Virus record (IMG/VR): IMGVR_UViG_2563366800_000007
Source of the DNA: a virus
Taxonomy: Duplodnaviria > Heunggongvirae > Uroviricota > Caudoviricetes
Direction: 5' to 3' (one strand)
DNA: 42,997 bases
Within the stretch, counting starts at the first letter, position 1, and the number at the start of each line of letters is the position of its first letter. The translations under genes and the position numbers were made by a program. The notes beneath the pieces were generated by a model that had not been told where the DNA came from, did no database searches, and was given only the letters and a program-made list of their open reading frames with translations. This document shows, piece after piece, positions 6,584 through 8,895 of this stretch.

Positions 6584-6938
6584 GATGTTCTCCACTATTG
6601 CTGAGTGAACTTCGCTGGTGGTGCCGTGACGCTGATCTTCACAGTTGAGCGTTTTAACTCTGCAATTCACCACCGCGAAGCTCACTTCTGTGTTTGCCCT
6701 TGTCGCCAGGCTGGCGGAACGTTTCAAACCTACTGCGCGTTAATATCACCACCTCATTCCGGTTTTCGTATGCCCCGGACGGCTACTTCGTGGGCTCCAT
6801 GCCTGGGTGGTTCGTGGTGCGTCTTGGTGAGTTAGATTAAATCACTGGTTTATATATATGTCAACTTAAGGTTAGTGTTAATTGTAAATCTGAGGTTTAT
6901 GTGGCTGGGTTTTGTGACACGTCTGCAGAATCGCAGGC

Positions 6939-6967
6939 AAAAAAAATCCCGACGCTAAGGTCGAGAT
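6939..6967 (-). terminator. Rho-independent terminator candidate (minus strand)
   Basis: Imperfect 8-bp stem (atcccgac / gtcgagat on the plus strand) with a 6-nt loop, followed on the minus strand by a run of 8 U. Confidence 0.45.
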
Positions 6968-7017
6968 CGGGGACTTCGTGGCTGGGTGTTGGCGGCTGAG
7001 ATGGTGGGTGAGGGTGT

Positions 7018-7041
7018 AAAAAACCCGGCGCTGTGGCCGGG
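7018..7041 (-). terminator. Rho-independent terminator downstream of the HicAB-SecB-like operon
   Basis: GC stem cccggc / gccggg with a 6-nt loop, followed on the minus strand by a 6-U run; lies 8 bp past the stop of the 7049..7474 gene. Confidence 0.55.
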
Positions 7042-7048
7042 TTGGAGA

Positions 7049-7474
7049 TTATTTTCTAGATGATGTTGGGGACCAAGGTAACGTTATAGTATCTAACACT
7101 GTGTTTTTGAACATATTTTCAAAAACTGTTTTTGTACATACATATACATAATTTTCAAAAAACCAAGCATTTTCATTATAAAAATCCTCAGTTACTTCTT
7201 CATCGAGGTCACACTCAAATGTTAGTGTCAAGGTAGCCTCTGCCTTGAACAATACATCCTCACCATCATCAAAATCTTTTTTATCGCGAGGGAAACCAGT
7301 TATCGATGGCTTAACTTCAATAAAGAGCCAATTTCCATCTTCATCTTTTTGAGGAACAACGTGATGCTCAGAAAATTTTAAGCTATATTTTCCGCCTTCA
7401 GAATTATCACTGTCGTCGATAAAAAGGGAAGAACCCTCGAGATCAAATCCCTTAAAGCGAATTTTATCAAGCAT
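7049..7474 (-). CDS. Acidic SecB-like chaperone candidate (third gene of the hicAB operon)
   Basis: 141-aa acidic product (MLDKIRFKGFDLEG...); its ATG overlaps the HicB stop (TGATG), implying translational coupling; N-terminal IRFKGFDLE and C-terminal FENYVYVCTKTVF...ITLP segments loosely match SecB (IQRIYTKDISFE, LFPYARECI...LNLAP); AT-rich by eye. The track ORF begins 36 nt upstream at 7510. Confidence 0.5.
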   Translation of the reverse strand: MLDKIRFKGFDLEGSSLFIDDSDNSEGGKYSLKFSEHHVVPQKDEDGNWLFIEVKPSITGFPRDKKDFDDGEDVLFKAEATLTLTFECDLDEEVTEDFYNENAWFFENYVYVCTKTVFENMFKNTVLDTITLPWSPTSSRK

Positions 7475-7932
7475 CAATGTGGCACTCCGTTGTCTACTGA
7501 AACTTCCCAATAGGTCTCTTCTGTACGTCTACGGGATGAGAAGAAAGTAACTTCTCTAACATCCCTCGGTTTTTCAAAGTGGTAGTGAACCTCTTTTTTC
7601 CCATTAACTGACTCACTGACAGCCTGTTTTACATAATCGTTTAAAGTCATATTCTTAGCTTTAGCAGCTAAATATGCTTTTTTATGCAGGGATTCACCTA
7701 TCCGGATGTTAAACGAACCACTCATTGTCTTATCTGGAGATTTTCCTATCTCTTCACAAGTGGAGAGGTAATCGTCCACGGCCTCCTCAAAGGCTGCACG
7801 GAGTTCTGCAACCGTTGCACCCTCATAAGTGACGAGATCATTTATACATTCGAGTTTTCCATGCATCACCCCATCTTCAAATGAAATGCTGGAGCTACCA
7901 TAGTAACCTTTGTATTTCATCAAGTTATTCAT
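7474..7932 (-). CDS. hicB: HicB-family antitoxin (RNase H-like fold plus ribbon-helix-helix) with an about 45-aa aromatic-rich C-terminal extension
   Basis: MKYKGYYGS...HGKL...TYEGATVAELRAAFEEAVDDYL is a typical HicB N-domain; SGSFNIRIGESLHKKAYLAAKAKNMTLNDYVKQAV looks like an RHH DNA-binding motif; an extra tail ...KKEVHYHFEKPRDVREVTFFSSRRRTEETYWEVSVDNGVPH follows. Start 7932 or 7920 (track ORF starts at 7947). Confidence 0.8.
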   Translation of the reverse strand: MNNLMKYKGYYGSSSISFEDGVMHGKLECINDLVTYEGATVAELRAAFEEAVDDYLSTCEEIGKSPDKTMSGSFNIRIGESLHKKAYLAAKAKNMTLNDYVKQAVSESVNGKKEVHYHFEKPRDVREVTFFSSRRRTEETYWEVSVDNGVPH

Positions 7933-8179
7933 GATCATCAATCTCATCTAACAGCTGTTTAACTTCTTCCAAGACGTACCTTTTGAGGGTGTTTTCAGGA
8001 TGAGGCTCATGAAAAATGACCAATCTATCAACACGTTGGTTGTAAAATTTACGGCCAGAACCTCGTTTAGCATTCAAAAGCTTGAAGCCATACTGGTTCA
8101 TGAGAGTAACGAACTCATCCCAAGTAAAATTTTTGGGTAAGCCGTCTAACTTTGACTTTAGCTTTTCCTTTCTTCCCAC
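7925..8179 (-). CDS. hicA: HicA-family toxin (putative mRNA interferase)
   Basis: 84-aa ORF (GTG start) MGRKEKLKSKLDGLPKNFTWDEFVTLMNQYGF...RGSGRKF...IFHEPHP matches the HicA pattern (KxFTWDE...GSH/GSxR...H); 3-prime end overlaps the hicB start. Confidence 0.8.
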   Translation of the reverse strand: MGRKEKLKSKLDGLPKNFTWDEFVTLMNQYGFKLLNAKRGSGRKFYNQRVDRLVIFHEPHPENTLKRYVLEEVKQLLDEIDDHE

Positions 8180-8205
8180 GAAGGATACATCCTCTGTTAA
8201 AGGTA

Positions 8206-8227
8206 GTGCAACTGAAATCTAGTTGCA
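8206..8227. promoter_or_regulatory. Palindromic operator candidate upstream of hicA (GTGCAACT-n7-AGTTGCA)
   Basis: 7 to 8-bp inverted repeat with a 7-bp spacer, 27 to 50 bp upstream of the hicA start codon; RHH antitoxins typically bind such palindromes. Confidence 0.4.
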
Positions 8228-8339
8228 AGCTATGCTATCTATAGACAAAATGTTTCATTGTTATATCAGAAGATACCCGATCTGTTTCACCTTCAACTAC
8301 TATAATTTGTTATAAGCTATCAACCGGTGGAACTGCGAA

Positions 8340-8438
8340 TTAGCCGCTGGGTGTTGCGTATCCATCGATGATAAACCATGCCATAAACCCCATAGCTACG
8401 ATGAACACCAAGATCGGAAACACTATACCAATTCTCAT
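8340..8438 (-). CDS. 32-aa hydrophobic peptide (candidate small membrane protein)
   Basis: Hand-translated ORF MRIGIVFPILVFIVAMGFMAWFIIDGYATPSG with AGGGA about 7 nt upstream of the ATG; a single predicted transmembrane helix; lies between repressor 1 and the hicA promoter. Confidence 0.3.
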   Translation of the reverse strand: MRIGIVFPILVFIVAMGFMAWFIIDGYATPSG

Positions 8439-8483
8439 GATTTTATCCCTGTCTACCCATGCTTCCTGGGCACCAGCGGCTCG

Positions 8484-8876
8484 TTACTCGGCATCGCCCT
8501 TAATCCGCCGCCCCATATATTTGGCGTACAGATCGTCGAGTTCCTTCAGGCGCAGTGATACCGCCTTAAGAACTCCACCCTGATTCTCTTCGGGGAGTTG
8601 ACGGAAAAGGCGTAAAAGCTCTTGCTCATTACTTTTTAATCCATCATTGGGCCCTATATCCTGCCCCAAAACCCAGGCTAAATTCACACCAAGCGCATCA
8701 GCTAGCTTAAGTGCGGAGTTTTTCCCAATAGTTCCCCTTACAAACCAGTTGTTAACCGACTGGGATGTTACGCCACAAATTCTGGCCAGATCTGCTTTTG
8801 AGAGATGTTTACTATTCGTGATCTCATTGAGTCGTCTGACCTGTGGGTTATCTGATTCGTGTGTATTTTTTCTCAT
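8484..8876 (-). CDS. CI-like HTH repressor, paralog 1
   Basis: HTH segment LSKADLARICGVTSQSVNNWF followed by a coiled C-terminal region (LKELDDLYAKYM); leftward orientation opposite the Cro-like ydaS, typical of an immunity repressor. ATG at 8876 chosen (track ORF begins with GTG at 8891). Confidence 0.7.
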   Translation of the reverse strand: MRKNTHESDNPQVRRLNEITNSKHLSKADLARICGVTSQSVNNWFVRGTIGKNSALKLADALGVNLAWVLGQDIGPNDGLKSNEQELLRLFRQLPEENQGGVLKAVSLRLKELDDLYAKYMGRRIKGDAE

Positions 8877-8895
8877 GTACAAGAGTATCACTTAG

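Follow-up and report, generated by a model that had tools for sequence, protein, structure and literature searches.

Systems of the toxin–antitoxin–chaperone (TAC) type are the closest described relatives of a three-gene cassette, hicA-hicB-hicC (hereafter hicABC), that lies in a 42,997-nt stretch of viral DNA (Caudoviricetes; IMG/VR record IMGVR_UViG_2563366800_000007), which is referred to below as the window. Chaperone dependence has been shown experimentally for one HicAB-type TAC, the Mmet-TAC of Methylomonas methanica MC09 (Bordes 2016, PMC5105189). The chaperone addiction domains (ChADs) of the antitoxins in reported TACs are variable and disordered, and they carry spaced aromatic anchors (Bordes 2016, PMC5105189; Mets 2024, bioRxiv 10.1101/2024.02.24.581848). 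A second relative, HigBAC of E. coli NT1F31, is encoded by a prophage and occupies a variable locus downstream of cI, which is the place of rexAB in lambda. Its chaperone, HigC, senses the lambda protein gpV, which competes with the ChAD, in a mechanistic model that makes the chaperone the phage sensor (bioRxiv 10.1101/2024.02.24.581848). According to the same preprint, the TACs tested so far (HigBAC, CmdTAC and MqsRAC) defend against phages. A preliminary description of the window had stated that TACs are documented mainly for HigBA- and MqsRA-type modules. HicAB versions are indeed less frequent, but a HicAB TAC had already been tested in 2016 (PMC5105189).

We interpret hicABC as a HicAB-type TAC system that travels as a mobile moron and occupies the variable slot immediately downstream of the repressor genes of the prophage, and we place the probability of this reading at about 80%. 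The cassette comprises three translationally coupled minus-strand open reading frames (ORFs) at positions 7049-8179 of the window. The first gene, hicA (7925-8179, minus strand), begins with a GTG codon that has an AGAGGA Shine-Dalgarno sequence 10 nt to its 5ʹ side, and it encodes 84 amino acids (aa). The second gene, hicB (7474-7932, minus strand), encodes 152 aa (beginning MNNLMKYKGY) and shares 8 nt with hicA (ATGAATAA). The ATG of the third gene, hicC (7049-7474, minus strand), has one base in common with the hicB stop codon (TGATG), and its product is an acidic protein of 141 aa that is the candidate dedicated chaperone. We prefer position 7932 as the hicB start because it agrees with the N-termini of aligned homologues and gives the 8-nt overlap. 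Other possible starts are an ATG further upstream at 7947, which appears in the ORF list, and the RefSeq start at 7920, which yields a 148-aa product. The G+C content of the cassette is 36-42%, compared with approximately 49-50% in its flanks, and its bounds are a conserved operator-like palindrome on one side and a strong terminator on the other. The preliminary description had proposed three AT-rich, coupled minus-strand genes with a GTG start for hicA, an 8-nt hicA/hicB overlap and a TGATG junction between hicB and hicC, and all of these features are evident in the sequence.

The predicted structure of HicC provides a first indication of the role of the third gene. An AlphaFold2 model computed from 10 sequences (predicted local distance difference test (pLDDT) score 79, predicted template modelling score 0.73) places a long helix after four long antiparallel strands, whereas residues 123-141 form coil with no confident C-terminal second helix. 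When this model was used to search with Foldseek, the top 18 matches were all chains of Rv1957 or SecB (probability 1.00, template modelling (TM) score of about 0.65), and the closest was the ChAD-bound mycobacterial TAC chaperone. As judged from this model, HicC has the SecB chaperone fold and is nearest to the mycobacterial TAC chaperone. The protein (isoelectric point (pI) 4.36) belongs to a small family. Homologues number 12 in a collection of 5.8 billion sequences, and a search of 1.8 billion proteins recovered 60 representatives with E ≤ 1e-3, some of them spurious. Two giant matches to the HicC profile (P0023 and P0047) were discarded as eukaryotic Ig-repeat proteins that match spuriously through their repeats. 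HicC is unmatched in NCBIfam and falls within a PHROGs family of unknown function. A weak member of the HicC family (P0066, on metagenome contigs L012 and L013) stands alone without hicAB, beside an IS200-type Y1 transposase gene and a DnaB helicase gene; this is an orphan chaperone, or else the match arose by chance.

The antitoxin has a recognizable core and a distinct C-terminal extension. HicB matches Pfam HicB (PF05534) with an E value of 1.5e-18 (66.9 bits versus a cut-off of 21). Because modelling used the 148-aa RefSeq product, residue numbers given here are converted to the 152-aa numbering by adding 4. Residues 1-106 form the core, which consists of an N-terminal beta-beta-beta-alpha domain and a ribbon-helix-helix (RHH) domain, with strands modelled at 6-34 and helices at 37-58, 76-88 and 93-106. 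The best Foldseek matches for the model are B. pseudomallei HicB 6g26 (probability 1.00) and E. coli HicB 6hpb. The global TM score to HicBs in the PDB is low (0.35), for which domain placement and the tail are responsible. Pfam, AlphaFold2 and Foldseek agree on a partial RNase H-like N-terminal domain plus a C-terminal DNA-binding domain, in line with the earlier proposal of a complete HicB.

The remaining 42 residues of HicB (107-148, encoded at 7477-7602 on the minus strand; GKKEVHYHFEKPRDVREVTFFSSRRRTEETYWEVSVDNGVPH) constitute the candidate ChAD. This tail is modelled as coil, and its confidence declines along its length (block-mean pLDDT of 73 for residues 101-110, 54 for 111-120 and less than 50 from 121 onward). 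Phe, Trp, Tyr and His make up 21% of the tail versus 11% of the core. HicB tails that are linked to HicC retain K-E-x-H-[YF]-H-[FIL], a Trp about 10 residues before the C-terminus that is almost invariant, and His as the last residue, and are otherwise variable. Two length classes of HicB are apparent. Tailed proteins of about 148-170 aa align over the whole query, whereas tail-less proteins of 108-123 aa end right after the second RHH helix, as in a 113-aa Pseudomonas HicB that sits in a plain two-gene hicAB. A near-identical 114-aa HicB (P0082) was considered as a natural tail deletion and is uninformative, as its contig stops 56 nt later. The aromatic-rich extension, put at about 45 aa in the preliminary description, is therefore present, disordered in the model and absent from tail-less relatives. 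Its composition and predicted disorder follow the pattern reported for ChADs, making it a candidate chaperone-addiction element.

If the tail and the third gene form a functional pair, their distributions are of particular interest. We collapsed 80 IMG/VR loci to 45 distinct viral HicBs with enough downstream DNA. A coupled ORF of at least 100 aa follows 37 of the 39 tailed HicBs (29 from the HicC family and 8 from other families) and none of the six tail-less HicBs. The two tailed exceptions are L061, which has a transposase-like ORF 3ʹ of hicB and in which hicA was not found, and L072, which lacks a coupled ORF after hicB. Distant HicC homologues with 20-29% identity lie directly after HicA and a 152-166-aa HicB in five of five cases, and these distant hicABC loci are often in prophage immunity regions. 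In an abundant cluster of Enterobacter HicBs (P0110, 152 aa), the antitoxin gene shares 4 nt with a downstream ORF of 141 aa that lacks Pfam matches, and the locus adjoins a cI-like repressor gene. A search for related loci with close alignment returned one genome locus.

Several results weigh against a TAC assignment and have to be set beside this evidence. The association between tail and coupled ORF (Fisher p = 3e-6) counts relatives without regard to phylogeny, and the fold match of HicC derives from one AlphaFold2 model built from only 10 sequences. At the sequence level, Pfam searches at E ≤ 1 yielded nothing for HicC or any of 54 family members, including the SecB family (PF02556). Searches of PDB sequences for HicC, by phmmer and with a 54-sequence profile, likewise yielded nothing. 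Comparison by hhalign of the 54-member family with E. coli SecB gave a probability of 0.2%. Thus, of the earlier proposal that the third protein is SecB-like, the part concerning the fold has gained support, whereas the suggested similarity in sequence has not.

These findings bear on an alternative in which the third protein is not a chaperone for HicB. HicC would instead be an independent SecB-fold accessory, such as a second antitoxin, a HicA regulator or a factor directed at a phage or host protein, and the tail would serve as a degron or an oligomerisation element. A link to SecB that exists at the fold level only is compatible with this alternative, and the conserved final residue of the tail is His, in contrast to Mtb HigA1, for which a ClpX-type aliphatic dipeptide has been described. 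However, tail and coupled downstream gene are present or absent together across the clade, and the best structural match is specifically a TAC chaperone with a bound ChAD. The acidic character of HicC (pI 4.4) and its lack of a family match give no sign of a DNA-binding domain, and a DNA-binding third component was rejected on the same grounds. We therefore regard a non-chaperone function for HicC as improbable and favour a chaperone that acts on the HicB tail.

The toxin presents the most unusual sequence feature of the cassette. HicA is basic (pI 8.9) and matches both Pfam HicA_toxin (PF07927; E 1.2e-7, 32.1 bits versus a gathering cut-off of 27) and PHROG 8887, labelled 'toxin' (E 2.7e-34). 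When a profile of the HicA clade was compared with the PDB, the HicAs 6g26_E, 4c26_A and 5yrz_B were among the top weak matches. However, the protein reads R-G-S-G-R-K-F, with G-S-G where GSH is usual, which the preliminary description had raised as a caveat that required a real alignment. There is no histidine in residues 1-56, such that the canonical catalytic His of strand beta2 is absent, and this too counts against a working TAC because the beta2 histidine is needed for activity in the HicAs that have been studied (PMC7180214). The toxin might accordingly be catalytically dead and the cassette a decaying or repurposed remnant. The clade alignment points elsewhere. In nearly all relatives, two-gene systems included, the residue after GS is G, R or K, and it is never H, and because the substitution is clade-wide, it is not a lesion of this copy. 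In addition, H57 and H60 are invariant across the clade, with or without a chaperone, in the motif F-H-E-P-H-P (H-x-P-H-P). Antitoxin, chaperone, operator and gene overlaps are kept in loci whose HicC identity is as low as 20-29%, which is unexpected in the absence of a toxin. We reject the remnant scenario as unlikely, given that the whole system is conserved clade-wide. Given that the antitoxin, the chaperone, the operator and the coupling of the genes have all been kept, we infer from the sequences that this HicA clade probably has its catalytic residue at another position, and we favour this over a dead toxin.

HicC is not the only protein to be coupled to HicBs of this type. Tailed HicBs of the hicABC clade are also followed by proteins of 126-181 aa that fall into no fewer than five families without recognisable similarity to one another (IMG/VR loci L069, L071, L073, L074, L078-L099, L089, L092, L094 and L097), and their ORFs begin at the hicB stop codon, mostly with an ATGA overlap. 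Pfam searches with seven non-HicC coupled ORFs that follow tailed HicBs found no match and no SecB. One of the families (L069, L073, L074 and L089) carries a SecB-like LYPYLR...FPW helix, and its hhalign matches are marginal, with a probability of 50% (E 1.7e-4) against E. coli SecB and of 44% (E 2.3e-4) against the HicC family. The connection in sequence between HicC and SecB is therefore weak and transitive, passing at 44-50% through this HicB-linked family. The arrangement suggests repeated swapping of chaperone and tail on one HicAB chassis.

A more far-reaching, and tentative, possibility is that HicC founds a sequence-orphan branch of the SecB fold that acts as a swappable phage sensor. 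A chassis of HicA, HicB and operator would have been joined at least five times to small coupled proteins that are mutually unrecognisable, each with a matching HicB tail (HicC plus the L069-, L078- and L092-type, L094 and L071 families), and the HicA clade would cleave RNA by means of a relocated histidine in the H57/H60 motif H-x-P-H-P in place of the beta2 His. If this proved true, the cassettes would amount to a natural sensor-exchange system in a prophage immunity slot.

An operator-like inverted repeat, TGCAACT-AGATTTC-AGTTGCA, resides at 8207-8227, approximately 48 nt upstream of the hicA start. Its 7-nt arms fell below the length threshold of our repeat scan, which missed it, and the 7+7 repeat is by itself weakly non-random. 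The palindrome recurs with the consensus tGCAACTa-N5-tAGTTGCa at about -48 from hicA in nearly all HicAB-clade loci, including two-gene hicAB members and loci with unrelated upstream DNA, and its flanks are not conserved. The loci concerned (L003-L099) contain very divergent hicAB genes, including those of Gram-negative prophages and gut metagenome phages. Because sequence and distance are both conserved across the clade, the palindrome is very likely the HicB operator. It offers a possible search motif for the hicABC-type HicB clade and a ready handle on the regulation of hicABC. The upstream palindrome of the preliminary description (8206..8227) is thus real, with its ends at 8207 and 8227.

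A weak candidate promoter, TTGCAA-17-TACCTT, overlaps the palindrome; it was not called by a consensus scan, and no promoter passed the sigma-70 consensus scan of the minus strand. Transcription may also enter hicABC from the repressor genes upstream, which are on the same strand. Downstream, a minus-strand terminator at 7018-7041 (CCCGGC-CACAGC-GCCGGG-TTTTTT; stem 7041-7024 plus six T residues) is supported by its fold (-14.6 kcal/mol, z -4.63, with none of 200 shuffles as good). This element is homologous to 'Timm', the immunity terminator of lambda-type phages, which is annotated at the corresponding place in the lambdoid phage mEp234 (EF120460.1). A second, terminator-like hairpin from the consensus scan (6937-6968, minus strand; stem 6968-6945 plus eight T residues) folds weakly, no better than shuffles (z -1.25), and lies outside the module held in common with mEp234. 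Two tandem terminators had been proposed, and of these the first is well supported and the second has a consensus match only.

A plausible mode of action can be outlined if the regulation, sequestration, addiction and abortion steps, which we infer from the TAC paradigm (Bordes 2016; Mets 2024), also apply to hicABC. HicB dimers would bind TGCAACT-N7-AGTTGCA through their ribbon-helix-helix domains to repress the operon, and HicB would sequester the HicA RNase. In lysogens, the operon would probably also be read through from the repressor transcript, as is lambda rexAB, with transcription stopping at the Timm-like terminator. The HicB tail is expected to make the antitoxin prone to aggregation or degradation unless a HicC oligomer holds the tail by its aromatic residues. 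Upon superinfection, HicC could be drawn off the tail by a phage protein whose aromatic residues are similarly patterned, or through a general loss of new HicB and HicC synthesis. HicB would then fail, and free HicA would degrade RNA and abort the infection.

The genomic setting of hicABC is that of a mobile element. In sequence, the window agrees at 100% identity with a Rac-like prophage that is integrated beside kch in E. coli AR_0118 (NZ_CP020048.1), and a match that covers at least 80% of the cassette query occurs in 6 of 5426 complete E. coli genomes. A module at 7020-8523, which comprises Timm, the three hic genes, the operator and a YoaK-like ORF of 32 aa, is 99.7% identical to mEp234 by blastn, and positions 7020-8500 are 99.9% identical in DNA to mEp234, HK106 and mEp506 by megablast. 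The surrounding backbones differ. Genes in mEp234 are arranged in the order cI, hicABC, Timm, oL/pL and N, which places the cassette in the rexAB slot of lambda within a lambda-type immunity region, whereas the window carries a Rac-like RecET/Kil/YdaS-YdaT prophage with the order two tandem helix-turn-helix (HTH) repressors, hicABC, Kil (a PHROG 294 homologue, E 2.8e-35), YdaE and RecET. Sister prophages with the same flanks hold other, uncharacterised cargo between Kil and the repressors. The cassette therefore lies in a variable cargo slot between the repressors and the leftward early genes, and this agrees with its earlier placement between the repressors and Kil/RecET at the position of the exclusion gene sieB in Rac-type prophages.

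Several further features of this region were recorded. The slot cargo in two sister Rac-like prophages (L101, 3843-4789, and L102, 3961-5364) has no PADLOC match and no credible Pfam match. The proteins encoded are of 211 aa (coiled-coil-like) and 101 aa in one prophage and of 467 aa in the other, and the genes may serve exclusion or defence. The two CI-like HTH repressors of the window (8484-8891 and 8896-~9279, minus strand), annotated in RefSeq as helix-turn-helix proteins, are tandem paralogues that both end in the C-terminal motif ...LRLKELD[DE]LYAKYM.RRI.GDA[ED] and lack a peptidase S24 domain. One sister prophage has two copies of such a CI-like repressor and another has one. Between repressor and hicA, a 32-aa hydrophobic ORF (8340-8438, minus strand) is annotated as a YoaK-family small membrane protein, and it is unannotated in mEp234 even though it falls inside the module that the two share.

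Whether the cassette defends its host against phages is a separate question, on which our rough estimate is even odds. To the points against our interpretation given above must be added that no PADLOC defence model matches the cassette and that our literature search found no paper describing HicC or experiments on hicABC. In addition, the two-gene HicAB2 of a P. putida prophage is a working toxin–antitoxin pair, toxic and neutralisable, with no defence or stability phenotype (PMC12894663). Because HicAB2 showed neither role, defence by hicABC is not to be assumed. The cassette could be a genuine TAC whose function lies elsewhere, either in stabilisation of the prophage or module through post-segregational addiction or in its own spread as a selfish, hitch-hiking moron in a recombination-prone slot. 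The 1.5-kb module does move intact between unrelated backbones, Rac-like with RecET and lambda-like with N/cI. The rarity of the cassette among complete E. coli genomes, the absence of a PADLOC match and the lack of a defence phenotype for HicAB2 also fit such a role. However, HicAB2 is equally without a stabilisation phenotype, and the slot holds rexAB in lambda and, in a different lambdoid prophage, HigBAC, a TAC with a validated defence function. The tested TACs HigBAC, CmdTAC and MqsRAC are reported to defend against phages. A TAC with a non-defence role is thus a possible but less favoured outcome, and we retain a TAC with a candidate defence function as our working interpretation.

The existing records also define how far hicABC is new. 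In a 2007 GenBank record of mEp234, the place of rexAB is taken by annotated hicA and hicB genes, a gene for a hypothetical protein, and Timm, and records from 2025 (PV340539.1 and PV340542.1) name a HicA toxin, a HicB antitoxin and a 'HicC chaperone'. The preliminary description had expected routine annotation to miss the system, which is correct for HicC in Pfam, NCBIfam and PADLOC but not for these two records. The cassette type is already known and the exact cassette already labelled in GenBank, and hicABC is therefore a sound but not a new defence candidate. It leaves the established TAC concept unchanged; its distinctive features are a sequence-orphan chaperone with a SecB fold and a HicA active site that departs from the canonical one.

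If the cassette works as proposed, a HicA-armed TAC would join the prophage defence systems that occupy the place of rexAB in lambda, and SecB-fold TAC chaperones would reach well beyond what sequence models can detect. TACs are probably under-counted in defence surveys, because Pfam, NCBIfam and PADLOC all miss HicC. The presence of the cassette in the classic lambdoid phages mEp234, HK106 and mEp506, which are genetically tractable, makes the proposed addiction, the phage trigger and the HicA active site directly testable.

Mmet-TAC (HicA Metme_2813, HicB Metme_2812 and SecB-TA) resembles hicABC in combining a toxin, a tailed HicB and a SecB-like chaperone in one operon, a likeness that we draw from the published description. 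However, the chaperones in that work are homologous to SecB, whereas HicC has no detectable SecB sequence signal, and hicABC differs from Mmet-TAC in being phage-borne in an immunity region. HigBAC occupies the same lambdoid slot and has a SecB-TA chaperone and a disordered ChAD with spaced aromatic anchors, but it is built on a HigB/HigA pair with a ribosome-dependent RNase, and its ChAD is 96 aa long compared with 42 aa for the HicB tail. HicC itself shares 9-14% identity with M. tuberculosis Rv1957 (PDB 5MTW) and housekeeping SecB (1QYN, 1FX3 and 5JTL), from which it differs in that its model lacks a confident C-terminal second helix and its family is small, with the 60 representatives noted above. 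The nearest counterparts of all are in mEp234, HK106 and mEp506 (EF120460.1, NC_019715.1, PV340539.1 and PV340542.1), where an identical cassette is carried on another backbone.

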